The position numbers and the translations under genes are program-made. Below, piece by piece: positions 11,404 through 58,661 of a stretch of DNA of 64,000 nt (position 1 is the first letter of the stretch; each line of letters opens with the position of its first letter). Source of the stretch: Candidatus Pacearchaeota archaeon. Lineage in GTDB: Archaea; Nanobdellota; Nanobdellia; Pacearchaeales; GW2011-AR1. The notes beneath the pieces were generated by a model that did no database searches, was not told where the DNA came from, and saw only the letters and a list, made by a program, of their open reading frames with translations. The stretch spans positions 7,823 to 71,822 of the forward strand of contig JBAZOZ010000001.1 in assembly GCA_041648455.1 (NCBI GenBank), written 5' to 3'.

Positions 11404-11523
11404 ATGAAACAAAAATTAAGAATAAAGAAAATACAGAAATCGAAGATTTCTGTCCTTACAAAACAAGAAGTTTTGAAAGTAGGGAATTCTCTAATTCTCA
11501 TTTTTGGGAAACATAAAAAATGA
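11404..11523 (+). other. lysine-rich mini-ORF / intergenic repeat unit (39 codons); stop overlaps downstream start (ATGA)
   Basis: MKQKLRIKKIQKSKISVLTKQEVLKVGNSLILIFGKHKK. Shares the CCTTACAAAACAAGAAGTTTTGAAAGTAGG module with copies near 44430 and 44550. Confidence 0.4.
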
Positions 11524-23429: not shown

Positions 23430-24113
23430 ATGATTGAATCAAAAAAAGAATACATCGTCATCCCGGCATACAACGAAGAAAAGAGTTTGGGGAAAGTTGT
23501 AGATGATTTAAGAAAAAATAAATTTGAAAATATAATCGTTGTTAATGATGGTTCTATAGACAATACATTTGAAGTTGCCAAGAACAAAAAAGTAAAGATA
23601 TATTCTCATATAATTAATCGCGGTTTGGGAGGAGCATTGAATACCGGAATTTCAGCAGCACTAATGAACCATGCAGATATTATTGCAACTTGCGACGCTG
23701 ATGGGCAGCACGACCCAATGGATGTTAAAAGAGCTATAGAATTTTTAAAAAAAGAAAATTTAGATGTTGTTATTGGTTCAAGGCTAATAAACTCAAAAGG
23801 AATGCCCATATCAAGAAGAATTATTAATTCTGGCGCTAGTTTTGTTACTCAATTATTATTTGGAATTTATTCAACAGACACCCAATCTGGATTGAGAGTT
23901 TTTACTAAAGAAGCTGCAGAAAAGATAATAATAAAAACAAATAAAATGGAAGTCTCGTCGGAGATTATTAAAGAAATAGGAAGGAATAAATTAAAATTTA
24001 AAGAAATTCCTATAAAAGCTATATACACTGATTATTCTATAGAAAAAGGCCAAAGAGGATTAAATGCTTTTAACATTGCATACAAACTTATGTTAAGGAA
24101 AATTATGAAATGA
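23430..24113 (+). CDS. GT2 polyprenol-phosphate glycosyltransferase (DPM1/GtrB-like)
   Basis: YIVIPAYNEEKSLGKVVDDL...IIVVNDGSIDNT...TCDADGQHDP is typical of dolichyl-phosphate mannose/glucose synthases. Confidence 0.8.
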   Translation: MIESKKEYIVIPAYNEEKSLGKVVDDLRKNKFENIIVVNDGSIDNTFEVAKNKKVKIYSHIINRGLGGALNTGISAALMNHADIIATCDADGQHDPMDVKRAIEFLKKENLDVVIGSRLINSKGMPISRRIINSGASFVTQLLFGIYSTDTQSGLRVFTKEAAEKIIIKTNKMEVSSEIIKEIGRNKLKFKEIPIKAIYTDYSIEKGQRGLNAFNIAYKLMLRKIMK

Positions 24114-24135
24114 AAAATTTTCAATTTTTCAATCA

Positions 24136-24180
24136 TTTAAACACTCACGCGACACGGCGTCACAGGAACGTGTTCAAATA
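24136..24180 (+). promoter_or_regulatory. palindromic box TTTAAACAC-N7-ACACGGCGTCAC-N5-CGTGTTCAAATA ending 2 nt before the ATG (copy 1 of 3)
   Basis: Near-identical copies at 39218..39261 and 40253..40297. Inner inverted repeat ACACGG/CCGTGT. TTTAAA could serve as a TATA box. Confidence 0.5.
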
Positions 24181-24182
24181 AA

Positions 24183-24506
24183 ATGATAATTCAATGGGTA
24201 ATCTTAATTTTAGTACTTTTTATGTATTTCAAACTTTTAATGGATTTGAAAAAAGGGAGAATTTCCTTGAGAAGATTTTTCTTTTGGTTGTTTATCTGGA
24301 CAGGACTTTCGTTAATTACATATTTTCCTCAAATAGTTTTCTTTTTTTCTAATTTAATTGGTATTGAAAGAGCCAAGGATTTGCCTATTTATGTTTCTAT
24401 AATTTTATTATTTTATCTATTATTCAAAATAAGTATAAGAATAGAAGAAATTGAACAGGGAATAACTAAAATAGTTAAAAAGATTGCGCTGGGAGTTAAG
24501 GAATGA
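24183..24506 (+). CDS. DUF2304-family small membrane protein (GtrA-like partner of DPM1-type GT2)
   Basis: 107 aa with 3 TM helices. Immediately downstream of the GT2. The hydrophobic pattern WVILILVLFMYFKLLMDLKKGRISLRRFFFWLFIW fits the family. Confidence 0.45.
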   Translation: MIIQWVILILVLFMYFKLLMDLKKGRISLRRFFFWLFIWTGLSLITYFPQIVFFFSNLIGIERAKDLPIYVSIILLFYLLFKISIRIEEIEQGITKIVKKIALGVKE

Positions 24507-24712
24507 AAATACAAAAATTAAAAATTTTTACCCTTCCACATGGAAAACAAGAAATTTTAGAAGAAATAAGAATTTTTTTACCACTTATGGAAAATAAGAA
24601 AAACAGAAAAGTTTTTCATCTCTCCAAATCAAGAAGATTTGAAGATAAGAAATTTTCTGTCCCATTCAAAATAGGAAATTTTGAAGACAAACATAGGAGA
24701 TGTTCGAGATGA
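24503..24712 (+). other. 69-codon mini-ORF / intergenic repeat element (paralogous to 57374..57505)
   Basis: MKIQKLKIFTLPHGKQEILEE... The first 45 nt are almost identical to 57374-57418. ATGA overlaps at both ends (24503/24506 and 24709/24712). Confidence 0.4.
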
Positions 24713-33055: not shown

Positions 33056-33598
33056 ATGAGGGAGAATTTAGACATGGTAAATAAAATAATGAGACTTGGA
33101 AAATTAGAAATTGATTTAAAAGAATTATCTAAATTTTTAGTCGGGGCTAAAAAAAATTGCTATGCTGGAAATGGTGAAGAAAAAAGATTATCTGATGGTT
33201 CAAAAATCTTAACTTTTCAAGAAGGAAATTTTCATTATGAAGATAATTATGATGGCTTTTATCAAGCTCCTGGAAGAGAATTGGTAAGATGGAAAAACGA
33301 AAACGGGCAGAGAATCTGGCAAATGTCTTATTGTGGAGGAATGAATCCAGAATATTTTAGAAACAAAAAATTTAGTGAAGATGTTTTTAGATTTTTGAAA
33401 ATCGCGCTGGGACGAGTTAGTGAAGAGATGCCTTTTAGAGGACCAGAACAATATGAATGGAATATAAATGGGTGGAATTATAGTTCCAATATAATTGGTG
33501 ATGTAAAAAGATTTATAGGTAATGAATTTATAAAAGCACCATCTGAAGATATTTTATTTTCATTAGACTTTATTGGGGGTTTATTTACTCCAAAATGA
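33056..33598 (+). CDS. hypothetical protein
   Basis: 180 aa, soluble. The stop overlaps the start of the following mini-ORF (ATGA). Confidence 0.4.
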   Translation: MRENLDMVNKIMRLGKLEIDLKELSKFLVGAKKNCYAGNGEEKRLSDGSKILTFQEGNFHYEDNYDGFYQAPGRELVRWKNENGQRIWQMSYCGGMNPEYFRNKKFSEDVFRFLKIALGRVSEEMPFRGPEQYEWNINGWNYSSNIIGDVKRFIGNEFIKAPSEDILFSLDFIGGLFTPK

Positions 33599-33648
33599 AA
33601 AAAACAAAAAGTTTTTTGCCTTTTCAAAATAGGAAGTTTTTAAGATGA
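33595..33648 (+). other. 17-codon lysine-rich mini-ORF / repeat unit ([17 protein letters not shown]), ATGA-coupled on both sides
   Basis: Near-identical copies at 39081 and 43967. TGA at 33646 overlaps the ABC ATPase ATG at 33645. Confidence 0.4.
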
Positions 33649-35688: not shown

Positions 35689-36906
35689 ATGATTCTCGAT
35701 TATTTTAAACTCGCCTTGGGAAATTTGAGGCATAGAGGAATTAGATCGTGGTTGACAATTCTTGGAATCTTTATTGGAATTGCTGCAGTTGTTGCTTTGA
35801 TTTCTATGGGAGCTGGATTAAAATCGGCAGTCATAGGACAATTTGGAGCGCTTTCGGTAGATAAACTCACAATTCAAAATAAGGGAACTGGATTTGGACC
35901 TCCAGGAAGCACAGTTGTTGAAAAATTAAATAATCATGATATTCAAATTATAGAAAATGTTCGGAGAGTTGATTTAGTTATTCCGAGATTAATTCGAATT
36001 GCCAAAGTAGAATATAATAAAATTCCAACTTATACTTACATTACAGATCTTCCAGATACTTCGAAAAAAATGGATTTGGTTTACGAATCTTTTAATGTTA
36101 TGGTCAGCGACGGAAGATTATTAAGGCCAGATGATAGTGGAAAAATTTTAATTGGAGCGGATTTTGCGAAAACAAAAACTTTTGAAAAAGATTTAGCTGT
36201 TGGAAAAAATATACAAATTAATGGAAAAGATTTTCAAATTATTGGAATCTTAGAAAAATCAAGTAGTCTCCAATTAAATAATGTTATTTTAATGCCGACA
36301 AAAGATTTGCAAGAACTTTTAGGAATTAAAGACGAATGGGATTTGATTGTTGCACAAGTTCATGATAAAAATAAAATTCAAGAAGTTGCAAAAGATATAG
36401 AAAATGCACTAAGAAAAGACAGGAATGAAAAAATTGGTGGGGAAACTTTCAGTGTTCAAACTCCCTTGCAAGCACTTGGAGCAGTTAATACTATATTAAA
36501 TATAATTAATGCAATTGTCGTCGGTATCGCGATGATTTCTCTTGTTGTTGGTGGTGTTGGAATTGCAAATACGATGTATACTTCAGTTATAGAAAGAACA
36601 AAAGAAATTGGAATTATGAAAGCAATTGGAGCTAAGAACAAAGATATTTTATGGATATTTTTAATTGAGTCTGGTTTGCTCGGATTGGTTGGTGGAATCG
36701 TAGGAGCATTGATAGGTTTGGGGGGAGCAATTGGAATTTCAAATATTGCAAACAGCGCGTTAGGAAATGATTTATTTAAGGTAACAGTTTCTTATCCATT
36801 ATTATTTGCAGCAATTTCATTTTCATTTATTCTTGGAATTATCTTCGGTGTTTTTCCTGCTTTGCAAGCAAGTAAATTAAAACCAGTTGAGGCGTTGAGA
36901 AAATAA
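35689..36906 (+). CDS. ABC transporter permease, FtsX/MacB family
   Basis: N-terminal TM helix, large extracytoplasmic domain and C-terminal 3-TM FtsX domain (SVIERTKEIGIMKAIGAKNKDILWIFLIESGLLG). Confidence 0.85.
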   Translation: MILDYFKLALGNLRHRGIRSWLTILGIFIGIAAVVALISMGAGLKSAVIGQFGALSVDKLTIQNKGTGFGPPGSTVVEKLNNHDIQIIENVRRVDLVIPRLIRIAKVEYNKIPTYTYITDLPDTSKKMDLVYESFNVMVSDGRLLRPDDSGKILIGADFAKTKTFEKDLAVGKNIQINGKDFQIIGILEKSSSLQLNNVILMPTKDLQELLGIKDEWDLIVAQVHDKNKIQEVAKDIENALRKDRNEKIGGETFSVQTPLQALGAVNTILNIINAIVVGIAMISLVVGGVGIANTMYTSVIERTKEIGIMKAIGAKNKDILWIFLIESGLLGLVGGIVGALIGLGGAIGISNIANSALGNDLFKVTVSYPLLFAAISFSFILGIIFGVFPALQASKLKPVEALRK

Positions 36907-36907
36907 A

Positions 36908-37216
36908 ATGGAAGAAAGGACAACAATTCAAGGAAAATTAGAATTAAAAATTCGTGGAGAAGGTGTTTGTGGAGAATTGGAATTAACTTATATGCCCATT
37001 GAAAATATAGAAGGAGCACAAAATATTAATTGTACAATGAAAACAACAATAAATGCAAGAGATTATTTGAGTTTAGCAAAAGATGTAAATAATATAGTTA
37101 GAGGGTTTGGATGTTCTGTTGGATTAAGGAATACAAAATATGATTTACAGGTAGTAGGGGATAAAAAAGAATTTGAGCAAGAAGATATAGATTATATTGC
37201 GGAGTTAATAAAATGA
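36908..37216 (+). CDS. small soluble protein encoded between the two permease genes
   Basis: 102 aa. Both ends overlap the flanking permease genes. Confidence 0.35.
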   Translation: MEERTTIQGKLELKIRGEGVCGELELTYMPIENIEGAQNINCTMKTTINARDYLSLAKDVNNIVRGFGCSVGLRNTKYDLQVVGDKKEFEQEDIDYIAELIK

Positions 37217-38424
37217 TCTCCGATTATTTTAAAATTGCAATAAAAAATTTGAAACAAAGAAAACTTAGAAGTTGGTTGACTATGTTGGGAATTTTTATTT
37301 CGATTGCAACAATATTTACTTTGATAAGTTTGTCTCTTGGTTTGCAAGGCGCGATTAATGAACAATTCCAAATTTTAGGTGTGGATAAATTTTTTATTAT
37401 GCCGAAAGGACAATTAGGTGCGCCTGGAACTGGCGGGGCTGTTGAATTAACATTAAAAGATGTAAATGTCGTCGAGAAGACTTCTGGAGTCAAGGACGTT
37501 ACTTATGCTACTGTAGCAAATGCAAAAGTCGAATTTAATAAACAAACAAGATATATGATGGTTGTTGGACTTCCCACAGATAAAATAGAATTATTTAAAG
37601 AATCTACCAGTCTAAAGATTGAAGATGGAAAATTTATTGAAAAAAGTGTAACAGGAAAAATTGTTTTAGGATATGATTACAAATATGGAAATATTTTTGG
37701 AAAACCCATTATTGTTGGAGAAATCATTTTAATTAACGGACAGAAATTTAGAGTGATTGGAATCTTAGGACAAATTGGGAATCCCCAGGACGATAAAAAT
37801 ATTTATATGTCAATTGACGATGTGAAATCTGTATTTAATACCAGAGATAGAATTGATGAAATAATTATTCAAATAAATTATGGAGAAAATATTAAAGATG
37901 TTGCAAACAAAGTTGAAGATAAATTAAGAAAATCGCGAGGTGTGACTGAAAAAACGCAAGACTTCAGTGTTTTAACCCCGGAAGAACTTTTACAAAGTTT
38001 TGGAAATATTCTTACAATAATCACTGCCTTTTTAGGGGGAATTGCGGCAATATCTTTAATTGTCGGGGGAGTTGGAATCACAAACACAATGTATACTTCA
38101 GTTATAGAAAGAACAAAAGAAATTGGAATTATGAAAGCGATTGGTGCAAAAAATAAAGATATTTTATGGATTTTTTTAATTGAATCTGGTTTGCTCGGAC
38201 TTGCTGGAGCAATTATTGGTGTTGTCTTGGGTTATGGATTAAGTAATGGAATAGTATATATTGTAACTAATTTATATAATACAAATTTATTACAAGCAGC
38301 GGCACCGATTTATTTAATTGCCGGCTGTTTAGCATTTGGTTTTTTAATTGGCGCAATTTCCGGAGTTTTACCTGCGTGGCAAGCATCAAAAACAAATGTT
38401 GTAGATGCATTGAGATACGAATAG
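37213..38424 (+). CDS. ABC transporter permease, FtsX/MacB family (paralog)
   Basis: The SVIERTKEIGIMKAIGAKNKDILWIFLIESGLLG block is identical to the one in 35689..36906. Confidence 0.85.
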   Translation: MISDYFKIAIKNLKQRKLRSWLTMLGIFISIATIFTLISLSLGLQGAINEQFQILGVDKFFIMPKGQLGAPGTGGAVELTLKDVNVVEKTSGVKDVTYATVANAKVEFNKQTRYMMVVGLPTDKIELFKESTSLKIEDGKFIEKSVTGKIVLGYDYKYGNIFGKPIIVGEIILINGQKFRVIGILGQIGNPQDDKNIYMSIDDVKSVFNTRDRIDEIIIQINYGENIKDVANKVEDKLRKSRGVTEKTQDFSVLTPEELLQSFGNILTIITAFLGGIAAISLIVGGVGITNTMYTSVIERTKEIGIMKAIGAKNKDILWIFLIESGLLGLAGAIIGVVLGYGLSNGIVYIVTNLYNTNLLQAAAPIYLIAGCLAFGFLIGAISGVLPAWQASKTNVVDALRYE

Positions 38425-39080: not shown

Positions 39081-39134
39081 ATGAAAAAAACAAGAAGTTT
39101 TTTGCCTTTTAAAAACGGGAAGTTTTCAAAATGA
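39081..39134 (+). other. 17-codon mini-ORF / repeat unit (MKKTRSFLPFKNGKFSK)
   Basis: Copy of the 33595 and 43967 units. TGA at 39132 overlaps the next ATG at 39131. Confidence 0.4.
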
Positions 39135-39265
39135 TGAAAATAAGAAATTTTCAAACATGTCAGAAATCCTCACGAAAAGGGATTTCTGAACACCTTCCAA
39201 ATTTTACAATTTGGAAGTTTAAACACTTACGCTACACGGCGTCACGGAACCGTGTTCAAATATGA
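39131..39265 (+). ncRNA. ~135-nt three-hairpin intergenic element (type B); also readable as a 44-codon ORF ending in ATGA with rpoF
   Basis: Hairpins at 39160-39188 (10-bp stem), 39194-39217 (10-bp stem) and 39232-39256. Homologous to 40176..40301 with compensatory base changes. Confidence 0.45.
39218..39261 (+). promoter_or_regulatory. palindromic box TTTAAACAC...ACACGGCGTCAC...CCGTGTTCAAATA (copy 2 of 3), abutting the rpoF ATG
   Basis: Same motif as 24136..24180 and 40253..40297. Confidence 0.5.
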
Positions 39266-39567: not shown

Positions 39568-39635
39568 TGAAAAAATAGATTTTTTCAATCTATTCAAATT
39601 TAAAAATAGAAATCCAAAATTTAAATATAAAAAAA

Positions 39636-40175: not shown

Positions 40176-40301
40176 ATGAAAATAAGAAATTTTCAATCAC
40201 GTCAGAAATCCTCTAGATTTCTGAACGCCATCCAAATTGTGAAATTTGGATGTTTAAACACCCACACAACACGGCGTCACAGACCCGTGTTTAAATAAAA
40301 T
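40176..40301 (+). ncRNA. ~126-nt three-hairpin intergenic element (type C), paralog of 39131..39265; also readable as a 40-codon ORF
   Basis: Same first 21 nt (ATGAAAATAAGAAATTTTCAA). Hairpins TCAGAAATC/GATTTCTGA and CATCCAAATT/AATTTGGATG. Confidence 0.45.
40253..40297 (+). promoter_or_regulatory. palindromic box TTTAAACAC...ACACGGCGTCAC...CCGTGTTTAAATA (copy 3 of 3), abutting the rps13 ATG
   Basis: See 24136..24180. Confidence 0.5.
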
Positions 40302-40800
40302 GGAAATAAAAAACCAACTCGTAGAGGCAAGAGAGGATAGGGTAGTTAGAATTATGTCAAAAGATATAGAAGGTAAAATGAGTGTTTATTCTGGATTAGC
40401 AAAAATAAAAGGAATTTCATGGGGTTTTTCAAATGCAATATGTAATTCATTAGGACTTGATAAAAAAAGAAAAATTGGGTTGTTAAGTACAGAAGAAATA
40501 AATAAAATTTCTGAATTTATAAAAAATCCGAAAGTTCCACCATTTTTATTAAATAGAAGAAAAGATTTTCAATCTGGAGAAGACATACACCTAAATGGGA
40601 GCAATCTTGAATTACAACAAGAATTCGATATTAAAAGATTGAAGAAAATAAAAAGTTATCGTGGTTTAAGACACATGAGTAACCTTCCCGTAAGAGGACA
40701 AAGAACAAAAAGTCATTTTAGAAAAAATAGAAGAAAAGGAAGTGGAATTAAAAAGAAAGCGAAGAAAGAAGGAGAGGTAAAAAAATATGAAAAAAATTGA
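40300..40800 (+). CDS. rps13: 30S ribosomal protein S13
   Basis: VVRIMSKDIEGKMSVYSGLAKIKGI...IKSYRGLRHMSNLPVRGQRTKSHFRKNRRKG follows the S13 consensus. Confidence 0.9.
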   Translation: MEIKNQLVEAREDRVVRIMSKDIEGKMSVYSGLAKIKGISWGFSNAICNSLGLDKKRKIGLLSTEEINKISEFIKNPKVPPFLLNRRKDFQSGEDIHLNGSNLELQQEFDIKRLKKIKSYRGLRHMSNLPVRGQRTKSHFRKNRRKGSGIKKKAKKEGEVKKYEKN

Positions 40801-40888
40801 AAATTTTTTGCCTCTTAAACTTGGGAAAAGTTCAAAATACAGAAAATCAGGAAAATTTTCTGTCTCATTAAAAATAGGAAATTTTTAA
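40787..40888 (+). other. 33-codon mini-ORF / repeat unit (MKKIENFLPLKLGKSSK...KIGNF) between rps13 and rps4
   Basis: Starts inside the last codons of rps13 (+1 frame). Ends 1 nt before the rps4 ATG. Confidence 0.35.
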
Positions 40889-40889
40889 G

Positions 40890-42886: not shown

Positions 42887-43123
42887 ATGAATTTTAAACT
42901 AACATTGTGGAAAAGTATTGTTTCTTTAATTATAGGATTAATTGTAGATTTTTGGGTTAACTTTTATACTATCTGTCTAACAATAGTTGGACCTGCTGTT
43001 GGAAAAGGTAAATGCTCAACTACTTTTGAAGCAATGTCTAGTGTATCTGGAATAATCATAGTTATTATTGTATCTATAATCATTTATTTTATCTGGAGCT
43101 TATTTGAAAAGAAGAGAAAATGA
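42887..43123 (+). CDS. small 2-TM membrane protein (paralog 1 of tandem pair)
   Basis: MNFKLTLWKSIVSLIIGLIV...IWSLFEKKRK. Stop overlaps the next start. Confidence 0.4.
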   Translation: MNFKLTLWKSIVSLIIGLIVDFWVNFYTICLTIVGPAVGKGKCSTTFEAMSSVSGIIIVIIVSIIIYFIWSLFEKKRK

Positions 43124-43350
43124 ACTTTAAACCGACATTGTGGAAGAGTGTTGTTTCTACATTGATTGGATTTATTGCTAAAATATTATTCATTTTTATT
43201 TATACTATTTCATCAGTTAAAGGTGCTGTAGAGCATAATTCTTTAATTTATAAATTAGGGGTATATGATGTCAAATTTCCAGAAATTTTTATAATTACAA
43301 TTGCATTAATAGTTTATATCATCTGGAGTTTATTTCAAAAGAAAAAGTAA
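43120..43350 (+). CDS. small 2-TM membrane protein (paralog 2 of tandem pair)
   Basis: MNFKPTLWKSVVSTLIGFIA...IWSLFQKKK. About 45% identical to the preceding ORF. Confidence 0.4.
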   Translation: MNFKPTLWKSVVSTLIGFIAKILFIFIYTISSVKGAVEHNSLIYKLGVYDVKFPEIFIITIALIVYIIWSLFQKKK

Positions 43351-43601: not shown

Positions 43602-43970
43602 ATGAAATCAAAAACCAGAATAGAAAAACAAACAAAAAGAAAAACAAATCCCAATTTAGTTGAAACTATTAGAAATGCTAGAAAAAATAAAAAATGGCTA
43701 GAAGTGGCTGGTTTGCTTTCCAATTCAAGAAAAAAAAGGGCAGAAATTAATTTGGACAGAATAAATAAGGAAGCAAAAGAAGGAGATATTGTTGTCGTTC
43801 CGGGAAAAGTTTTGTCTCAAGGGGAATTAACTAAAAAAATAAAGATTATAGCATTTGGTTTTTCAGAAAATGCAAGGGAAAAGATATTAAAATCAAAAAG
43901 TGAATTAAATTATATCTATGACGAAATTAAGAAAAATCCAGAAGCGAAAGGAGTTAAGATTTTAAAATGA
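43602..43970 (+). CDS. rpl18e: 50S ribosomal protein L18e
   Basis: KTNPNLVETIRNARKNKKWLEVAGLLSNSRKKRAEINLDRIN...VVVPGKVLSQGEL matches L18e. Confidence 0.85.
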   Translation: MKSKTRIEKQTKRKTNPNLVETIRNARKNKKWLEVAGLLSNSRKKRAEINLDRINKEAKEGDIVVVPGKVLSQGELTKKIKIIAFGFSENAREKILKSKSELNYIYDEIKKNPEAKGVKILK

Positions 43971-44020
43971 AAAAAACAAGAAATTTTTCACTTTTTCAAA
44001 ATAGGAAATTTTTAAAATGA
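43967..44020 (+). other. 17-codon mini-ORF / repeat unit (MKKTRNFSLFQNRKFLK) bridging rpl18e and rpl13 by two ATGA overlaps
   Basis: ATG at 43967 overlaps the rpl18e TGA. TGA at 44018 overlaps the rpl13 ATG at 44017. Confidence 0.4.
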
Positions 44021-44406
44021 AAATAATTGATGGAACAAATGCTATATTGGGAAGGCTTGCGAGTTATGCTGCGAAAGAGGCGCTAAAGGGTGAAGAATTA
44101 GTAATCTTAAATTGTGAGAAAATTATAATCACAGGAAATAAAAAAAATATTGAGAAAGAATTTCAGGAAAAACGAGATCGTGTGGGTAGTGGACAGAAAG
44201 GACCGAAAATTTCAAGATCATCGGATAAGATTGTTAAAAGAACCATAAGGGGCATGGTTGCACATAGATATAAAAGAGGTAAAGATGCACTAAAAAAAAT
44301 AAGATGTTATGTTGGAGTCCCAAAAGAATTTGAAAACCAGAAAAAAATAATAGCTGGAAAAGAAAAACCAATTAAATTTATTAGTGTAGAAGGCATTTCA
44401 AAATGA
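44017..44406 (+). CDS. rpl13: 50S ribosomal protein L13
   Basis: MKIIDGTNAILGRLASYAAKEALKGEELVILNCEKIIITG...KRTIRGMVAHRYKRGKDALKKIRCYVGVP matches the L13 consensus. Confidence 0.9.
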   Translation: MKIIDGTNAILGRLASYAAKEALKGEELVILNCEKIIITGNKKNIEKEFQEKRDRVGSGQKGPKISRSSDKIVKRTIRGMVAHRYKRGKDALKKIRCYVGVPKEFENQKKIIAGKEKPIKFISVEGISK

Positions 44407-44504
44407 AAAAAATACAAAAATCAGAGATTTTTGTCCTTACAAAACAGGAAATTTTGAAAGTAGGAAATTTTTTACCTTTTAAACTTAGGAAAAATTCAAA
44501 ATGA
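44403..44504 (+). other. 33-codon mini-ORF / repeat unit (MKKIQKSEIFVLTKQEILKVGNFLPFKLRKNSK)
   Basis: ATG overlaps the rpl13 TGA. Its TGA overlaps the next mini-ORF ATG at 44501. Confidence 0.4.
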
Positions 44505-44602
44505 AAAAAACAAAAAGTTTTTTATCTTTTACAGAAATTTCTAATTTCTGTTCTTACAAAACAAGAAGTTTTGAAAGTAAAAACAGGAAGTTTTCAAAAT
44601 GA
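44501..44602 (+). other. 33-codon mini-ORF / repeat unit (MKKTKSFLSFTEISNFCSYKTRSFESKNRKFSK)
   Basis: TGA at 44600 overlaps the rps9 ATG at 44599. Confidence 0.4.
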
Positions 44603-46149: not shown

Positions 46150-46686
46150 CTATAATTTTTTACTCAATCTTTCAAGTTTATTCTGAACGTGATTAAATAG
46201 GGTGGATGATACTATAGGTTGATGATTGCCGGGATGAATCATGCCGTTAAATTTTATCTTTCCTATATAGGTAAAGTTTTTTAATATTTTCTTTAATCCG
46301 TTAACCGAAAAAGTGTGTTTCTTTGCTAATTGGGTTAAACTTATATTTGTTGTGAGAAATTCTTCGAAAATCTCTTCAACTTCCCTATAGTTTTCAGCAG
46401 GAATAAGTCTCCCTTTTTCTATTTTATAGCCGAAAGGGACTCTGGACATTAATTCACCCTTCTGGGCTTTTTGAATCATCCCTTTTTTCTGGTTCTCTCC
46501 AAAAAAAACCAAGTGTTTTCTAAATGTCTCTAACATAACTCCATCAACCTTTTCATTAAGATATTCCTTAAAAGAATCTTCATTATCTGGAGCAAATTTA
46601 AAGCAAATAACACAAAGGGGGTGGTTATATTTCATTTTTGTCTCACATTCATAACCACATTTTGAACATTTTGTTTTTTCTGACAT
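46150..46686 (-). CDS. zinc-ribbon + 'Recombinase'-domain protein lacking a resolvase catalytic domain
   Basis: N-terminal CSKCGYEC...CVIC. C-terminal VPFGYKIEKGRLIPAENYREVEEIFEEFL...SLTQLAKKHTFSVNGLKKILKNFTYIGKIKFNGMIHPGNHQPIVSSTLFNHVQNKL follows the serine-recombinase 'Recombinase' (PF07508-like) pattern. Confidence 0.45.
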   Translation of the reverse strand: MSEKTKCSKCGYECETKMKYNHPLCVICFKFAPDNEDSFKEYLNEKVDGVMLETFRKHLVFFGENQKKGMIQKAQKGELMSRVPFGYKIEKGRLIPAENYREVEEIFEEFLTTNISLTQLAKKHTFSVNGLKKILKNFTYIGKIKFNGMIHPGNHQPIVSSTLFNHVQNKLERLSKKL

Positions 46687-46744
46687 TTTGAAAATTTTGT
46701 TTCTTTAATTTTGAGATATCCAAGAATTCTTAATTCTTGGTATT

Positions 46745-47608
46745 TTATACAACCTTTACCTCTTTTTTCATTAACTCATCTAATGGAGATTTTATCTTTT
46801 TTAATTCTTCTGATGATACATGAGCATAGATCTGAGTAGTGGACAAATCTGCATGTCCTAAAAGCTCTTGAATTTTCCTAATATCAACTCCATTTTCTAA
46901 GAGATGTGTTGCAAAACTATGCCTTAAAGTATGACAATGTACATCTTTTTTTATGCCTGCTTTTTTTGAAGCTTTATTTACAATCTTCTGAAGATTTCTT
47001 GAAGAAAGTTTTCCTTTTGGTCCTGTAAATAAATATTCTTGGTTTTCTTTTTTTTGTTGCACTATTTGTTTTTTCAAATCATTAGATAAGAATTCGGGTA
47101 TATTAAACATCCTATCTTTTTTTCCTTTTCCCTGCCTTATAGTTCCTATTTTCTCCTCAAAATTTAATTCTTTCATTTGTAGGTTAACAAGCTCAGAAAC
47201 ACGCAAACCAATTGCATACATTAAGGAAATCATTAGTTTAGATTTTTTATTCTCTGTAGCGTCGATAATCATAGTAATTTCCTCTTTTGTTAAAACTGTA
47301 GGTAACTTTTTTTCTCTTTTTGGACGTTTAATTCCGGCTGTTGGGTCTTTTCCTAAAACATTACCGTACGCATATTTTAGTGCAGATAAAAAAAGAATTA
47401 TAGATGTTGATGAATTATTTGAAAGATTTTCTGAAAGATAATATTTTACATCATTACTAGTAATTTCATCAGGGTTTTTGTTTACAAATTTCAAGAATCT
47501 TTCATTTGAGTTTAAATAATTTCTAAGAGTGTATGGAGAATTTTTTGATATTCTTAATTCAATCCTTGTCTTTTCTAAAAATTCGTTGGAGGTTAGCTTG
47601 TTTTCCAT
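46745..47608 (-). CDS. tyrosine recombinase / integrase (XerC/D-like)
   Basis: GLRVSELVNL (catalytic R). HCHTLRHSFATHLLENGVDIRKIQELLGHADLSTTQIYAHV (H-x-x-R ... Y). Confidence 0.85.
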   Translation of the reverse strand: MENKLTSNEFLEKTRIELRISKNSPYTLRNYLNSNERFLKFVNKNPDEITSNDVKYYLSENLSNNSSTSIILFLSALKYAYGNVLGKDPTAGIKRPKREKKLPTVLTKEEITMIIDATENKKSKLMISLMYAIGLRVSELVNLQMKELNFEEKIGTIRQGKGKKDRMFNIPEFLSNDLKKQIVQQKKENQEYLFTGPKGKLSSRNLQKIVNKASKKAGIKKDVHCHTLRHSFATHLLENGVDIRKIQELLGHADLSTTQIYAHVSSEELKKIKSPLDELMKKEVKVV

Positions 47609-49604: not shown

Positions 49605-50534
49605 ATGTATCAACAAATTATCCCATCTAAATTTAATAATCAAATGGAAGAGCAGTTAATTAAACTTTTCCATGAGTCTGATTTACCATTACATTTTAAC
49701 AAAACTGGAAATAAGGAATTTACAAATTATCAAAGAGTTTCTTTAATCATTTTATTTCACCGAAGCAAAAAATCAATTAGGGATTTTATCGACGAGGTTT
49801 CCGAATCAAAATGGATTTCTTATCTCGGATTGAAGAAAATTCCAAAGAAAAGCACCTTGCATGATTGGTTGAAAATTTTCGACTTGAAAATAATAAGAGA
49901 AATTTGCAAGGTGCTTTTGCCGACAGAGATTAAAGTAACTGCAATCGATGGAACCGGATTTGATTCATGGCAAAGGTCGAGGCATTATGAAAAAAGAGCT
50001 GAAGAAATAAAACCTCTTCCTAAGATGCCTTATTTTAAAACATGCCTTTTTATCGACGTGGGAACAAAATCAATAATTGATTTTGAAATTGTTCTGCATC
50101 ATGAACATGATGTAAAAATGGCGGAGAGAATTTTTAAAAGAAATAAACTAGAAAATATTTGGGGGTTGGGAGATAAGGGTTTTGATTCTGAAAATTTGCA
50201 CGAAATTGCTCGTGCAAATGGAATTATATTTTATGCTCCAGTTCGAAGGATGAATAAAAGAGCATTAAGCAAAAAGAAACCAAAAGGAAAATACCGACGA
50301 GAATGTATCGAAGTTCCAGATTTTGCTGGGAAAAGAAGTTTAGTTGAAAATGTGAATTCTGTTTTAAAAAGAACGCAAATTCATTTTCTAAGAAGCAAGA
50401 AAGACATTATGAAAGAAAGAGAATTTGGCTGGCAAATTGTTTTATATAATATTAAAAGAAAAATAAAAGTTTCATCTTTAGGAAAAATTCAAACTTTTAT
50501 TTTTTGGAAATTTAGAATTTTATTTCATTCCTGA
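49605..50534 (+). CDS. DDE-type transposase (IS4/IS5-superfamily-like)
   Basis: VTAIDGTGFDS (D1), GLGDKGFDSENL (D2) and the downstream ...NSVLKRTQ region give DDE_Tnp_1-like spacing. Confidence 0.6.
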   Translation: MYQQIIPSKFNNQMEEQLIKLFHESDLPLHFNKTGNKEFTNYQRVSLIILFHRSKKSIRDFIDEVSESKWISYLGLKKIPKKSTLHDWLKIFDLKIIREICKVLLPTEIKVTAIDGTGFDSWQRSRHYEKRAEEIKPLPKMPYFKTCLFIDVGTKSIIDFEIVLHHEHDVKMAERIFKRNKLENIWGLGDKGFDSENLHEIARANGIIFYAPVRRMNKRALSKKKPKGKYRRECIEVPDFAGKRSLVENVNSVLKRTQIHFLRSKKDIMKEREFGWQIVLYNIKRKIKVSSLGKIQTFIFWKFRILFHS

Positions 50535-52101: not shown

Positions 52102-52887
52102 TTAAATATCTTTTAAATGTAATATTGTTTGCAAAGAAGCTATTTTTTTAAGATTTTTGGAAATGGAAAGACGAATATTTTTGTTGTTTATCTTGCTTTT
52201 TTCGAGGGGAATTTCTTTTTTCAGCAATCTTCCAACATAATCCCTAATAGAACTTTCAGTTAGGTTTAATTTATCTGAGATAGATTTATAGTCGGCAAAC
52301 CCGTGCTCTTCTTCTAGCTGATATATTGTCGAGAAGATTAATAACTCTTGATCGGTTAATTTTTTGAATTTTAATCTAATTTCCTTCTTTAAGGTATCTA
52401 AAGAATCCAAGAGGTTATAGGCATTTTCTATTGAATTTTCTTTATTGTGCGAACCTTTATTTATTGATTTGTTTGTCTGTTGGTCTGTCTGTCTGTCTGT
52501 TGGAACCCTTTCATTTCCAGTGGAAATATCTAAAATTTGTCCTTTTAAAGAGCTAATATCTGCTGGATGTGCTGGAATTATCTGTTGATGTGCTGGAATT
52601 ATCTGTTGATGTGCTGGAATTATCTGTTGATGTGCTGGAATTCCTTCTATTTGGAAAATTGGCCTATTTGGAGAATATAATTGTTTTTTATCTTGTTTTA
52701 ACTCTTCAAGAATTTTTAGAAGATTTGAATTGACTTCTGCTAATTGCTTGATTAATTCTATGATCTCTGACATCTTCTCTCTTGTTTCAATAATGGCATT
52801 CTCAAACAAATTGTTCTCTTTTTTTAAATAGTCAATATCTTGCTTAATTTTTTGAAATGCCTCTTTCAGTTGATCTTCTTTCTCCAT
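52102..52887 (-). CDS. coiled-coil / tandem-repeat / C-terminal winged-helix protein (paralogous architecture to 51311..51958)
   Basis: N-terminal coiled coil. (IPAHQQ)x4 from a perfect 21-nt repeat. TDRQTDQQT from a CTGT-rich repeat. C-terminal LTDQELLIFSTIYQLEEEHGFADYKSISDKLNLTESSIRDYVGRLLKK is wHTH-like. Confidence 0.5.
   Translation of the reverse strand: MEKEDQLKEAFQKIKQDIDYLKKENNLFENAIIETREKMSEIIELIKQLAEVNSNLLKILEELKQDKKQLYSPNRPIFQIEGIPAHQQIIPAHQQIIPAHQQIIPAHPADISSLKGQILDISTGNERVPTDRQTDQQTNKSINKGSHNKENSIENAYNLLDSLDTLKKEIRLKFKKLTDQELLIFSTIYQLEEEHGFADYKSISDKLNLTESSIRDYVGRLLKKEIPLEKSKINNKNIRLSISKNLKKIASLQTILHLKDI
52561..52645 (+). repeat. perfect 21-nt tandem repeat (GATGTGCTGGAATTATCTGTT) x4 inside CDS
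   Basis: Read directly from the sequence. Confidence 0.85.
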
Positions 52888-54026: not shown

Positions 54027-54518
<492 letters not shown>

Positions 54519-55727
54519 ATGGCACCGAACATCGATCAAATTTTTGATTCTTTTGATAAGAATAGCGTGTTTAAAGACAAATTTATTTTACAAACAACCT
54601 ATAAACCCTCGGAAATTCCTCACCGAGATATGCAAATAAAACAAATAGCATCTATTCTCGCTCCAGTTTTGAGGGGAGAAAGAACGAGTAATTTATTTGT
54701 TTATGGAAAGACCGGAACTGGAAAAACCTTGTCAATTCAATATGTAAGAGACGAGCTTTTAAAGAGAGCAGAAAAGAATTTAGATTTTAAATTAAAAATA
54801 GAATATTTAAATTGTAAACTAAAAAAAGTTTCTGATACTGAATATAGAATTCTTGCAGAACTTATTAAAAAATTAGGAGGAAATGTTCCAATAACTGGAC
54901 TTCCCACAGAATCGGTTTATAGTAAATTTATTGAACTTATAGATAAAGAAAAACTATTATTGGTGTTAGTTTTAGATGAAATTGATCAAGCAGTTAAAAA
55001 AATTTCAGATGGTTTCTTATATAATCTTACCCGGCTTAATTCAGAGTTGTCTAAAAGTCAGATTTGTCTTGTTGGAATAAGCAATGATTTAACATTTTTA
55101 GATGAAATTGATCCAAGAATTAGGAGTTCCCTTAGTGAGGAAGAAATTGTTTTTCCTCCATATAATGCTTTACAATTACAAGATATTTTGAATAAACGGG
55201 CCAAGGAGGCATTTAAAGAGAATATTATTCAAGATGGTGTTATTGCTAAATGTGCTGCTTTTGCTGCAAGAGAGCACGGAGATGCAAGAAGAGCCTTAGA
55301 TTTATTAAGGATTGCCGGAGAATTAGCGGAGAGAGATAGTTCACCCAAAATTCTTGTAAAGCATATAGATGAAGCAAACAATAAAATTGAAAGAGATAAG
55401 ATCTTAGACGTTATTAAAACAGAGCCGAAGCAATTTCAAATAGTTTTATCTTCAATAATTCAACTTTCCGAGAAGCAAAAGGAATTAATTTTTACTGGAG
55501 ATATTTATAATCTTTATGAAGATATTTGCAGACAAAATCGGTGTGAGATTTTAACGCAAAGAAGGGTTTCAGATATAATTCAAGAATTTGATATGCTTGG
55601 AATTATTAATGTTAAAGTAATTTCAAAAGGCAGAGGAGGAAGAATGAGGGAGATTAAATTGGCCATTTCGAAAAATATTGCAGAAAAAGCTAAAGAAATT
55701 ATTAAGGATTCGTTAAATTATAGTTAA
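54519..55727 (+). CDS. cdc6: Orc1/Cdc6 replication initiator
   Basis: Walker A GKTGTGKT. Walker B LVLVLDEID. C-terminal winged helix. 402 aa. Confidence 0.9.
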   Translation: MAPNIDQIFDSFDKNSVFKDKFILQTTYKPSEIPHRDMQIKQIASILAPVLRGERTSNLFVYGKTGTGKTLSIQYVRDELLKRAEKNLDFKLKIEYLNCKLKKVSDTEYRILAELIKKLGGNVPITGLPTESVYSKFIELIDKEKLLLVLVLDEIDQAVKKISDGFLYNLTRLNSELSKSQICLVGISNDLTFLDEIDPRIRSSLSEEEIVFPPYNALQLQDILNKRAKEAFKENIIQDGVIAKCAAFAAREHGDARRALDLLRIAGELAERDSSPKILVKHIDEANNKIERDKILDVIKTEPKQFQIVLSSIIQLSEKQKELIFTGDIYNLYEDICRQNRCEILTQRRVSDIIQEFDMLGIINVKVISKGRGGRMREIKLAISKNIAEKAKEIIKDSLNYS

Positions 55728-55811: not shown

Positions 55812-57377
55812 ATGGATTCAGAAGAAATATTCAAATTTTGTTTGGAAAATGGACTCTTAGTGGACAAAGAAGTTTTAAAATTGTTCAGTGAATCAGGGGA
55901 CATAGAATCGGCTAAATTAATTATCCGAAAAATTAAAAATCATACTCAACAAAAAATAATTACAAAAAATCTTTTTTATGAAAATAAAGACAAGGTTAAT
56001 CAATTCTTTGATGATCTTCCAGAAGAAAATAGAAAAGGTTTAGAAAAATTAAAAATCAAACTTGGGTTGAGTATAGAAATTTCACGTGAAATTTCTACGA
56101 CGGAAATAAAAAAAGATGTTCAAGAAAATATAGATGGTTCTGTTAGGATCACTACAATGAATCAAAGTTTTAGCAAGAAAATTGAAGTTTCGGATTTTGT
56201 CAAATACTTTAGGGGGCGACTAAATGAAATGAAAAGTTATTTGCAGGAAAATTCTCAATTAGATGGACTCACTTCCATAAATAAAATTTCCGGAGAAAAA
56301 CAAAATTTTTCAATTATAGGGTTAGTTTATGAAAAAAGAATTACTAAAAATAAAAACATCTTGTTAGATATAGAAGATTTGACTGGAAGGGTTAAGGTTC
56401 TTATAAGTCAAAATAAAGAAGATCTTTACAAAAAGGCAGAAGATATAACTCTTGATGCGGTTTTAGGTTTTAAGGGAAGTGGGAACAGGGAAATTATCTT
56501 TGCAAATGAAATTGTTTTTCCTGATTCAATAATTCAAGAGAGAAAAAAATCTCCATTCGAAGAATATGCTTTATTTACAGGAGATTTGCACATTGGCAGT
56601 AAATTATTCATGAAAGAAAATTTTTTGAAATTTATCGATTATCTTAATGGAAAAATTCTCGATACACCTGAAGTTTCTAAAATTAAATATCTATTTATCG
56701 TTGGGGATTTGATTGCTGGTGTTGGGATTTATCCCGGGCAGGAAGAGGATTTAGAATTTCCAGATATTGAAAGACAATTTGAAGAAGCAGCAAGGATTTT
56801 GAGTAAAATAAGAAAAGATATTAAAATAATTATTTCTCCAGGCAATCACGATGCATTGAGAATTATGGAACCCCAGCCACTTTTCGACGAGAAATACGCC
56901 TGGCCACTTTATGAATTGGAAAATGTAGTTCTGACGGGAAATCCGGTTTCAGTCAATATTGGCGCCAGAAAAGGATTTAATGGATTTAATGTTTTGACTT
57001 ATCATGGTTATTCTTATCATTATTATGCAAATGTTATTCCTAAATTAATTATAGAAAAATCTGTTCATACTCCGGAAAAAATCATGGCTTATCTTTTGAA
57101 ATATCGTCATTTAGCACCTACACATTCTTCTACATTATATTTTCCTTCTGAAGAAGATCAGTTTATTATCAGAGATATTCCAGATATTTTTGTTTCTGGA
57201 CACACCCATAAAAGTGCCGTGACATATTACAATAATATTTTGATAATTTCAAGTTCCAGCTGGGAAAGTTTGACTCCCTTTCAGGAGAAGATGGGGAATC
57301 AGCCAGATTTTTGCAAGGTTCCGATGTTTAATCTTAAAACCAGGGGAATTAAGGTTTTGGATTTTGAGGGAGAATGA
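55812..57377 (+). CDS. DNA polymerase II (PolD) small subunit DP1
   Basis: Calcineurin-like phosphoesterase motifs GDLHIG, VGDLIAG, PGNHD and GHTH. 521 aa. Confidence 0.9.
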   Translation: MDSEEIFKFCLENGLLVDKEVLKLFSESGDIESAKLIIRKIKNHTQQKIITKNLFYENKDKVNQFFDDLPEENRKGLEKLKIKLGLSIEISREISTTEIKKDVQENIDGSVRITTMNQSFSKKIEVSDFVKYFRGRLNEMKSYLQENSQLDGLTSINKISGEKQNFSIIGLVYEKRITKNKNILLDIEDLTGRVKVLISQNKEDLYKKAEDITLDAVLGFKGSGNREIIFANEIVFPDSIIQERKKSPFEEYALFTGDLHIGSKLFMKENFLKFIDYLNGKILDTPEVSKIKYLFIVGDLIAGVGIYPGQEEDLEFPDIERQFEEAARILSKIRKDIKIIISPGNHDALRIMEPQPLFDEKYAWPLYELENVVLTGNPVSVNIGARKGFNGFNVLTYHGYSYHYYANVIPKLIIEKSVHTPEKIMAYLLKYRHLAPTHSSTLYFPSEEDQFIIRDIPDIFVSGHTHKSAVTYYNNILIISSSSWESLTPFQEKMGNQPDFCKVPMFNLKTRGIKVLDFEGE

Positions 57378-57505
57378 AAATACAAAAATTAAAAATTTTT
57401 GTTCTTCCACATGGAAAAGATGAAAATCAAGAATTTTCATTCTTACAAAACAAGAAATTTTGTAAGCAAAAAATTTTCCATGCCATTCAAAACAAGAAGT
57501 TTTGA
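57374..57505 (+). other. 43-codon mini-ORF / repeat element (MKIQKLKIFVLPHGK...), paralog of 24503..24712
   Basis: ATG overlaps the DP1 TGA. First 45 nt nearly identical to 24503-24547. Confidence 0.4.
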
Positions 57506-57689
57506 AGGAAATAAGAAGTTTTAGAAGAAATAAGAAATTTTTTATACATCAAAAATTGTTTTTTGCGTAAACTCCCAGTTTTAACTCGTGAGAAAGCAAA
57601 AACAATTTTTGGGATGTTCAAGAACTCGAGACACGCCCCGGAATTTATTCCGAGGGTTCTTGACATTTCCAAATCAAGAAAATTTGAAA

Positions 57690-58661
57690 ATGAAAATAGA
57701 AGATAGAGTTTATGGAGAAGAAGAAATTGAAGAAGAAGTTTTAATTGATTTAATTAATTGTAAATCTGTTCAACGATTAAGGGGATTGGCTCAATATGGA
57801 TTTCCCGACGAATATTATCCTAAATGCGGTTTTTCAAGATATGAACATTCTTTAGGAGTTTTAATTTCTCTTCGAAAGTTGGGAGCTGATTTAACTGAAC
57901 AAATTGCGGGTTTATTACATGATGTTTCTCATACATCTTTTTCTCATGTTATTGATTGGGCAATTGGGAATCCAGAAAAAGAAGATTTTCAAGATAAAAA
58001 CCATTTAAATGTAATAAAGAATTCCGAAATACCTCAGATCCTAAATAGATATGGTTTTGATTACAAGGTTGTTTCTAGAATTGAAGATTTTCATTTATTG
58101 GAAAAGGAAGCTCCGATTTTATGTGTTGATAGAGTTGATTATACCTTAAGAGAAATAGTCTTTGATGGAGATGCGGATTTATCTAAAAAATTTTTATTTA
58201 ATTTGAAAAATAGCAATAACGATTTATTTTTTGTTGGAAGAGATATTGCTGATGAATTTGGGAGAGCATATGCCAAACTGAATAGAGAACATTGGGCAGG
58301 AGTGGAAGCTAGAGCAAGATATTATCTTTTGGCAGATATTTTAAAAAGATCTTTCGAGAGAGGAATAATTACTGAAAAAGATATATACAAAACAGATTAC
58401 GAATTGATAGATCAACTTTATGAGTTTGGTACTTCAGACATGATTAAGGATTTAACTTTTTTGAAAAGAAAGAAAGTTGCTGTGTCTTGCAATAATGGAA
58501 ATGGAATTTTGATGAGGAAAAAATATCGACGAGTGGACCCGCAAATATCTGAAGATGGAAGACTAAAAAGATTAAGCGAGGTATCTGAAGATTATAGATT
58601 ATTTTTAGAGAATGAAAAATCTTTTTTGGAGGAAGCTAAATATATAAAATTTTTAAAATGA
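57690..58661 (+). CDS. HD-domain metal-dependent phosphohydrolase
   Basis: HSLGVLISLRKLGADL...AGLLHDVSHTSFSHV (H...HD). The ORF is open in frame back to 57588, but that extension is repeat/hairpin sequence. Confidence 0.7.
   Translation: MKIEDRVYGEEEIEEEVLIDLINCKSVQRLRGLAQYGFPDEYYPKCGFSRYEHSLGVLISLRKLGADLTEQIAGLLHDVSHTSFSHVIDWAIGNPEKEDFQDKNHLNVIKNSEIPQILNRYGFDYKVVSRIEDFHLLEKEAPILCVDRVDYTLREIVFDGDADLSKKFLFNLKNSNNDLFFVGRDIADEFGRAYAKLNREHWAGVEARARYYLLADILKRSFERGIITEKDIYKTDYELIDQLYEFGTSDMIKDLTFLKRKKVAVSCNNGNGILMRKKYRRVDPQISEDGRLKRLSEVSEDYRLFLENEKSFLEEAKYIKFLK

Follow-up and report, generated by a model that had tools for sequence, protein, structure and literature searches.

Hairpin repeats readable as mini-cistrons at the operon junctions of a Pacearchaeota archaeon: a lineage-restricted family with a REP/BOX/RPE-like appearance

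What are the two similar, hairpin-rich segments that stand directly before rpoF and rps13 in the genome of a Candidatus Pacearchaeota archaeon? The stretch analysed here, which we call the window, comprises 64,000 nucleotides (nt) of an archaeal contig with 29% GC (JBAZOZ010000001.1 of GenBank assembly GCA_041648455.1, positions 7,823 to 71,822). An earlier sequence-only reading took the two segments for paralogous three-hairpin elements and, on the strength of apparent compensatory base changes, for a structured RNA that could regulate genes of the translation and transcription machinery. The homology extends from end to end (39131-39264 against 40176-40302, 86.3% identity over 124 shared columns, nhmmer E=1.3e-20), and the location is equally firm, with both segments stopping at the start codons of genes confirmed as those for RpoF (Pfam Rpb4) and S13. 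The answer to which the evidence leads is nevertheless a different one. By sequence comparison, the two segments, hereafter copies A and B, are long-form members of a modular, sense-oriented, hairpin-rich interspersed repeat family. Because these repeats lie before the start codons of varied genes and are always readable as throw-away mini-genes, they are not dedicated regulators of rpoF and rps13. The best description is that of a new lineage-restricted family of modular hairpin repeats resembling repetitive extragenic palindromic (REP) sequences, BOX elements and Rickettsia palindromic elements (RPE), with a mini-cistron design that is apparently obligatory.

Both copies lie on the plus strand and consist of an array of hairpins enclosed in a short open reading frame (ORF). 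The mini-ORF of copy A (39131..39261) has 44 codons, with a TGA that overlaps the rpoF ATG at 39262, and that of copy B (40176..40299) has 40 codons, with its ATG 3 nt past the DUF655 stop and a TAA that ends 1 nt before the rps13 ATG at 40300. The start codons that the elements abut are conserved in orthologues (ATGATAAAA for rpoF, ATGGAA for rps13). A leaderless promoter formed by the terminal TTTAAATA was considered and rejected, the S13 start at 40300 being required for the conserved N-terminus and conserved in orthologues. The hairpins described in the sequence-only reading are present as stated: hairpin 1 (H1) is TCAGAAATCC/GGATTTCTGA with a 10-nt loop in copy A and TCAGAAATC/GATTTCTGA with a 5-nt loop in copy B, and hairpin 2 (H2) is CTTCCAAATT-ttac-AATTTGGAAG in the former and CATCCAAATT-gtga-AATTTGGATG in the latter. 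Their number, however, is four perfect hairpins per copy and not three, an extra one (H0) standing at the 5' end; the one near the 3' end (H3, ACACGG-N10-CCGTGT) was likewise not spelled out in that reading. In copy A, H0 (39135..39153, TGAAAAT-aagaa-ATTTTCA) takes in part of the mini-ORF start codon and is followed by H1 (39160..39189), H2 (39194..39217) and a 3' module (39218..39261) of the form TTTAAACAC-N7-ACACGG(CGTCACGGAA)CCGTGT-TCAAAT, in which hairpin H3 occupies 39234-39255. Copy B repeats this order with H0 at 40177..40195, H1 (9-bp stem) at 40202..40224, H2 at 40229..40252 and a 3' module at 40253..40299 whose H3 (40268-40291) reads AACACGG-N10-CCGTGTT.

The architecture is modular. 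A short form of ~73 nt consists of H0 followed by the 3' module (TTTAAACAC-N7-H3-GUUYAAAUAAA), and a long form of ~125-131 nt adds H1 and H2 between the two. Throughout all copies the heptamer GCGTCAC (GCGUCAC as RNA) in the H3 loop is invariant. No stand-alone repeats of H1 and H2 were found elsewhere in the window, where both are confined to copies A and B. Three occurrences of the GC-rich core ACACGGCGTCAC are present in the window, where 0.25 would be expected; one of them is part of a third, short-form copy (copy C, 24110..24182, plus strand; hairpin 24111-24131, 3' module 24136-24182) between the genes for a GT2 glycosyltransferase and a DUF2304 membrane protein. The 3' module of copy C, TTTAAACAC-N7-ACACGGCGTCAC-N5-CGTGTTYAAATA, ends 1 nt before the DUF2304 ATG, and the mini-ORF of this copy has 23 codons and an ATG overlapping the upstream TGA.

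Four more distinct copies were recovered by pattern scans of public genome (one true locus) and metagenome (four) collections. They comprise a short form from a Woesearchaeota metagenome-assembled genome and Hainich groundwater, between divergent genes and ahead of a small membrane ORF (L001 = L002 = L009); a long form with all hairpins from Hainich, after a SecF-like gene (L005); a short form on a metagenome contig, between rpl2 and the next gene (L008); and a long form from Hainich at the DUF655/rps13 junction, as in copy B (L013). With a covariance model of the 3' module, all copies reach 67-82 bits and the next-best match in the 142 kb searched 15 bits, and neither nhmmer nor the covariance model detected diverged additional copies across all fetched loci. 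Four further pattern matches (L003, L004, L006 and L007) were discarded as chance matches, lying on GC-richer contigs and lacking the ACACGG arms, and a scan of viral contigs with two element patterns gave no match. Within the reach of these searches, the family is restricted to one Pacearchaeota/Woesearchaeota lineage. Downstream of the copies stand unrelated genes, namely those for RpoF, S13 and DUF2304, two further small membrane ORFs, and the gene that follows rpl2.

How stable the occupancy of these sites is can be judged from the same operon in seven relatives, which share 84-88% identity with the window in the DUF655 protein. The DUF655 protein of the window is itself 100% identical to one annotated from a Candidatus Pacearchaeota metagenome-assembled genome, and Pfam identifies the neighbouring genes of the window as those for L21e, RpoF (Rpb4 family), DUF655, S13, S4, S11 and RpoD. 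The L21e/rpoF junction, captured in six of the relatives (the L017 contig ends before it), spans 183 nt in the window; the two genes overlap in L010 and L013 and lie 9-28 nt apart in L011, L014, L015 and L016. At the DUF655/rps13 junction, which measures 127 nt in the window, L013 has an orthologous long-form element (134 nt), L014 has a different, generic hairpin unit of 50 nt instead (54 nt in all), and the junction is empty in L010, L011, L015 and L017 (1-12 nt). All that the 27-nt spacer of L016 (1443-1469) retains is the 16-nt GTGTTTAAATAAAATG; this stretch matches the element's right end without a difference and resembles what a deletion would leave behind. Because orthologous junctions are mostly empty in close relatives, the elements are, on this sequence comparison, sporadic insertions that have been gained and lost over a short evolutionary scale.

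Two other junctions of this operon are variable as well. Directly past the rpoF stop, a 68-nt insertion between rpoF and the DUF655 gene (39568-39635) contains the hairpin TGAAAAAA-taga-TTTTTTCA; it is common to L014 (4266-4330) and L017 (148-209) and absent from the five others, where the gap is 5 nt. The rps13/rps4 junction is an insertion hot spot, occupied in the window by a three-hairpin generic array (40787..40889, plus strand) with a 33-codon mini-ORF that ends 1 nt before the rps4 ATG, and in L011 (2093-2197), L012 (2006-2257) and L017 (1267-1494) by unrelated small ORFs of 34, 83 and 75 amino acids, respectively. It is empty in L010, L013 and L016 (2-12-nt gap), and the two genes overlap in L015.

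These comparisons bear directly on the possibility that the segments are a structured cis-regulatory RNA, that is a leader, a riboswitch-like element or a small RNA (sRNA), that controls rpoF and rps13. The fold is very stable relative to shuffles (z = -5.4 and -7.0 for the two long copies of the window), the element is placed directly 5' of the start codons, one pair in H2 and one in H3 are compensated, and the H3 loop does not vary, all of which would suit such a function. The sporadic presence of the element and the unrelated genes behind its copies, however, disfavour a dedicated regulator of transcription and translation genes. The antisense strand folds equally well, so that an RNA-level structure and a DNA-level palindrome are indistinguishable on this evidence. 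The covariation, moreover, does not exceed chance. In an alignment of the seven distinct copies, a number at which statistical power is low, 95% of cells pair and 24 of the 34 pairs are invariant; only two pairs are changed on both sides, which 54 of 500 column shuffles match. The exchange of T:A for A:T in H2, previously read as compensatory, falls at a position that is unpaired in L013 (A:G) and L005 (A:A) and is simply variable. The hints from H3 are somewhat stronger: it reads ACATGG/CCATGT in L013, a change from C-G to U-A, and in L005 three substitutions build a new inner stem UACUG/CAGUA around the loop. A lack of statistically supported covarying pairs had been named beforehand as refuting a structured regulatory RNA; none was found among these few copies, at low statistical power, and the claim is therefore not upheld. 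What survives of the earlier preference for a structured RNA over a peptide is that the hairpins are real and the peptide is not conserved; the covariation-supported regulatory RNA, and with it the leader or sRNA for translation and transcription genes, does not. We regard cis-regulation of this kind as very improbable.

Searches for known RNAs point the same way. At gathering thresholds, Rfam finds only tRNAs and 5S rRNA in the whole window, and permissive searches around the elements return at best Yfr10 (23.9 bits, threshold 43) and PyrR (21.7 bits, threshold 54), both with E>1. A scan of the window for tRNA and tmRNA genes yields three ordinary tRNAs only. Several specific candidates were rejected. 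For an archaeal C/D-box sRNA, AUGAUGA is present in copy A only and replaced by AAAAUGA in the other three long copies, so that the box motifs are not conserved; there are no C'/D' boxes, and snoRNA models give E>=4.7. In alignments inspected by eye, the ACA after H1 that an H/ACA RNA would need is not conserved, and both element ends are A-rich and not complementary, contrary to a bulge-helix-bulge intron. A gene-specific leader, for instance a ribosomal-protein autoregulatory one, was set aside as not conserved before the same gene, DUF655/rps13 being filled by the element only in L013 among the relatives.

If the elements are not regulators of particular genes, are they peculiar to this family at all? 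The family forms part of a broader set of A/T-rich hairpin units, 50-200 nt long, that occupy junctions between co-directional genes of this genome, and its H0, H1 and H2 are unexceptional examples of this class. Perfect hairpins with stems of at least 7 bp number 103 in the window, compared with 52-70 in shuffles; 43 are intergenic, 32 of them in co-directional spacers. Directly 5' of copy A lies a 50-nt generic two-hairpin unit (39081..39130; AAAAAAC-aagaa-GTTTTTT and TTAAAAAC-gggaa-GTTTTCAA), itself a mini-ORF (MKKTRSFLPFKNGKFSK) with its ATG 2 nt past the L21e stop and its TGA in an ATGA overlap with the next start codon. Further units, likewise on the plus strand, comprise a 116-nt hairpin array before a GT1 glycosyltransferase gene (11404..11519; 38-codon ORF with a TGA overlapping the gene ATG), a 206-nt array between the DUF2304 and radical-SAM genes (24503..24708; 69-codon ORF with ATGA at both ends) and a 50-nt generic unit between the genes for DUF5680 and an ABC ATPase (33595..33644; ATGA overlaps at both ends). 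Similar units are present in L008 and L014. Two junctions illustrate their mode of occurrence: L18e and L13 share an ATGA overlap in L010, and in the window a 50-nt generic unit (43967..44016, plus strand) lies between them with ATGA overlaps on both sides; L13 and S9 have 1 nt between them in L010 and a ~4-nt overlap in L013, and in the window are separated by two 98-nt generic units (44403..44598, plus strand) with ATGA at all three boundaries. Judged by such cases, in which close relatives have nothing at the same junction or another unit in its place, the units are insertions. Compensated changes are seen at 9 of 17 pairs in one family of two-hairpin units, a number reached by none of 500 shuffles and by none of the slid controls, and on this account hairpin potential is maintained in the class.

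Another hairpin array (57372-57545) lies between the genes for the PolD small subunit and an HD-domain protein. The spacer there (312 nt, 57377-57690) contains, past the array, a long palindrome (~57548-57620) and a GC-rich hairpin CCCCGGAATTTATTCCGAGGG (~57635-57660); it gives no significant Rfam match, and the palindrome and GC-rich hairpin region could be a separate small RNA. Nearby, a 492-nt gene-free stretch (54027-54518) upstream of Cdc6/Orc1 and followed by both PolD subunits (these genes at 54519-55724, 55812-57374 and 58666-62133) is probably a replication origin, and the hairpin units on either side of it are oriented as their genes.

A further property that the units have in common is an open frame. 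All seven copies of the family are open from their left ATG to within -4 to +5 nt of the gene ATG. The left ATG of a unit overlaps the upstream stop (ATGA) or stands 2-3 nt past it, the exception being the unit at 11404 (27 nt past), and the stop of the unit overlaps the next ATG or precedes it by no more than 5 nt. In this frame, no internal stop occurs in the 337 codons of 11 units of the window, as against 31 and 18 in the other two. There are 166 single-substitution routes to a stop, so that at 10-20% divergence 5-11 stops would be expected, with P(0) = 0.004 to 1.6e-5. A chain of ORFs bridges 10 of 64 co-directional spacers of 35-330 nt, against 1.9 expected, and the bridged ones are those that bear hairpins.

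Genuine micro-protein genes, encoding small basic peptides of 17-69 residues, would account for ATG-started open frames and for their tight coupling of stop and start. The peptides themselves speak strongly against this. As the sequence-only reading had noted, the change in the H1 loop shifts the reading frame; the difference amounts to 7 nt, and the 44- and 40-amino-acid ORFs diverge past residue ~14. H2 and the 3' module are read in one frame in copy A and L013 and in another in copy B and L005, and the stop in the variable H1 loop of copy B and L013 falls in an unused frame. Since the long copies, orthologous and paralogous, thus use two different frames and have unrelated C-terminal halves, the mini-ORF peptide is not conserved. 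Differences among the 50-nt units, read from the sequences, are mostly non-synonymous, and a profile of the mini-ORF peptide had no match among 5.8 billion proteins. We consider functional micro-proteins hardly credible.

Why, then, should a frame be kept open that encodes nothing in particular? The initiation signals of the window suggest a reason. Shine-Dalgarno-like motifs precede 11 of 70 genes, against a background of 10%. TATA-like motifs that end 19-24 nt (mostly 21-22) before the ATG precede 11 of 22 first genes and 9 of 22 genes behind unbridged spacers of at least 35 nt, but none of 23 tight junctions and none of the 7 element-bridged ones. Given the absence of the TATA-like motif from all seven bridged junctions and Shine-Dalgarno motifs at background, genes behind an element have neither a leaderless promoter of their own nor a Shine-Dalgarno signal. 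Termination-reinitiation requires overlaps or very short distances (PMC10666635, PMC6728339), and every unit boundary is an ATGA or a 1-5-nt gap on the same strand, which is the geometry of coupled ORF pairs.

These observations would fit together if operon-internal translation in this genome works by handing ribosomes on. With leaderless mRNAs, transcribed from a TATA box ~21 nt before the ATG, and practically no Shine-Dalgarno signal, operon-internal genes would depend on a stop/start overlap, that is on termination-reinitiation, and an insertion at a start codon would survive only if this relay were restored. The unit would supply an ATG where the displaced start codon stood, remain open as a meaningless mini-ORF and place its stop within -4 to +5 nt of the real start, at which point the ribosome would be handed on. 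The hairpins would then be the element's own core and may serve recognition during its spread or a REP-like stabilization of mRNA. As there is no Shine-Dalgarno signal and no own promoter, and reinitiation needs short gaps, insertions would be tolerated only where start, open frame and adjacent stop are rebuilt. We therefore lean, without great assurance, towards the interpretation that these are REP/BOX/RPE-like selfish repeats, tolerated through a mini-ORF that preserves termination-reinitiation. The family status derives directly from sequence evidence, whereas the relay mechanism is something we infer from it with moderate support. Leaderless initiation may provide the same tolerance at the head of a transcription unit: in L009, where the element lies before the first gene of a unit, TTTTTATA stands 21 nt before the element's own ATG, and by this spacing a leaderless transcript would start with the mini-ORF. 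More tentatively, such relay mini-cistrons may constitute an undescribed kind of selfish element in DPANN archaea that exploits termination-reinitiation or, as in L009, leaderless initiation; we deem this a reasonable possibility, somewhat short of an even chance.

The promoter signals raise another candidate, a portable promoter/operator cassette in which TTTAAACAC is the TATA box and ACACGG-N10-CCGTGT with GCGTCAC is an initiator or a transcription-factor site, so that insertion would give the gene a new regulated start. Promoters in the window very regularly read (C)TTTAAAA or TTTATAAA, in many cases with CAC after it, and end 21-22 nt ahead of the ATG or, for 5S rRNA, of its 5' end. The resemblance of TTTAAACAC to the genome's promoters, which often combine TATA and CAC (5S gene, g23430, L21e), the position of GCGTCAC ~21 nt downstream of TTTAAACAC, where transcription starts, and the strict conservation of GCGTCAC irrespective of stem changes, which suggests sequence-specific recognition, are all in keeping with a cassette. 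Its spacing is not: TTTAAACAC lies 36-40 nt from the gene ATG and not at the genome's 21-23 nt, which would leave a 13-20-nt leader without a Shine-Dalgarno sequence where leaderless mRNAs dominate, although a short-leader transcript is still conceivable. A promoter would also leave unaccounted for the frame that is open over the whole element from an ATG at the upstream stop, and generic units that lack this module behave alike. A promoter cassette thus appears unlikely.

An element of RNA processing or stability, comparable to REP sequences and bacterial interspersed mosaic elements (BIME) or to BOX, deserves somewhat more weight and may coexist with the selfish-repeat interpretation. It would protect against exonucleases or provide an endonuclease cut before the AUG that yields leaderless downstream mRNAs, which this genome translates. 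The concentration of intergenic hairpins in co-directional spacers, the covariation of stems within the class and the constant abutment of the elements on the AUG agree with such a role. By itself, however, it predicts neither the in-frame openness nor the ATGA overlaps; the elements are dispensable in close relatives, and their folding shows no strand asymmetry. As a sole explanation we hold it to be improbable, if less so than a promoter cassette.

Several observations weigh against the view that these are selfish repeats tolerated by reinitiation. We infer translation of the mini-ORFs from sequence patterns. Within the window, arrays occur only in plus-strand gene clusters and in none of 10 minus-strand spacers. 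The units are paralogous and have in part inherited their open frame, so that the statistics lack full independence; we chose the left ATGs, though nearly every one of them overlaps or adjoins the upstream stop. Reinitiating two or three times in succession, as from L13 to S9, should cut the yield of downstream ribosomal proteins, and hairpins of 10 bp within an ORF are unusual. The hairpin insertion between rpoF and the DUF655 gene (39568-39635) has no bridging ORF, and a relay leaves the invariant GCGTCAC and the TATA-like TTTAAACAC unaccounted for. The signatures of mobility are equally sparse. Terminal inverted repeats are lacking, since ATGAAAATARGAAA... at one end and ...GTGTTYAAATAAA at the other are not mutual reverse complements. 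Filled sites are flanked on both sides by AAATAAAATG or TTTTAAAATGAAAA and empty sites have one copy, a sequence that is also the conserved end of the element together with the normal junction motif; there is accordingly no clear target-site duplication, AAATAAAATG being normal junction sequence too. No transposase associated with the elements was found in the window, and the sole transposase of the window (DDE, 49605-50531) has no element-like ends.

Of the traits of REP/IS200-IS605-like elements, one is present, in that all copies are intergenic and in sense orientation; a Pfam scan of the ~70 ORFs of the 64-kb window revealed no HUH (Y1) transposase. As a separate observation, a Xer-like tyrosine integrase and a recombinase fragment lie at 46153-47608 (minus strand); the same pair stands beside rps9 in L010 and L013, and it shares no ends with the hairpin elements.

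Among known repeats, RPE offer a close parallel in behavior; as reportedly described by Ogata and colleagues in 2000, they lie within protein-coding genes and are incorporated into the protein product. Short palindromic repeats in translated sequence, a frame kept open, a meaningless peptide and presence or absence between close relatives are the shared features. The elements described here differ in forming a separate mini-cistron between genes with stop/start overlaps and in having an archaeal host, and the two do not resemble each other in sequence. REP elements, GC-rich 20-40-mers whose orientation often alternates, are linked to the gene of a REP-associated tyrosine transposase (RAYT). 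With the REP/BIME-RAYT system and IS200/IS605-derived palindromes, the present units share extragenic hairpins, the lack of terminal inverted repeats and strand-specific orientation; unlike REP/BIME, they are A/T-rich, and to either side of the probable replication origin they are oriented as the genes there are. BOX of Streptococcus pneumoniae and the enterobacterial repetitive intergenic consensus (ERIC) and RU-1 sequences of enterobacteria have been reviewed by Delihas (PMC3184786, PMC2759123). Like the present family with its plan of H0-(H1-H2)-3' module, these are intergenic repeats composed of modules (boxA-boxB(n)-boxC), with stable stem-loops, co-transcribed with their neighbors, some with short ORFs and none encoding a transposase. 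They differ in being bacterial, in having either orientation and in lacking a link to start codons. To our knowledge, no rule of bridging ORFs with stop/start overlaps has been described for BOX, ERIC or RU-1. The boundaries themselves have a precedent, ATGA (-4) overlaps or 1-5-nt gaps being the geometry required for coupling in Haloferax and Escherichia coli (Huber et al., 2019, 2023; PMC6728339, PMC10666635). Those pairs consist of two real genes, whereas in the present case one member would be a mini-ORF without meaning of its own, encoded by the repeat and acting only as a relay. Our literature search found no paper on such intergenic hairpin repeats in Pacearchaeota or DPANN archaea.

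Reduced DPANN genomes are usually called compact, and this one has dozens of hairpin units within essential operons. For annotation, such spacers would best be treated as neither regulatory RNAs nor small protein genes. If the mini-ORF rule reflects selection, it would offer natural comparative evidence on the translation of internal cistrons in uncultured archaea and indicate a route by which selfish DNA could enter ribosomal-protein operons without polar effects. The frame rule would then be a natural readout of the reliance of operon-internal translation on ribosome hand-over in leaderless archaea that lack Shine-Dalgarno signals.

The window contains other repeated sequences. Tandem paralogous genes for MacB/FtsX-type permeases (35689-36906 and 37213-38424) are ~71-76% identical in DNA over the aligned stretches, with a 102-amino-acid ORF that lacks a Pfam match between them. 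A perfect 21-nt tandem repeat, GATGTGCTGGAATTATCTGTT, is present in ~3.7 copies (52566-52642) inside a minus-strand ORF (52105-52887). Finally, two paralogous small membrane ORFs of 78 and 76 amino acids (42887-43123 and 43120-43350), joined by an ATGA overlap and 81% identical over their first 58 nt, are inserted between rpoD and the gene for tRNA-Leu.

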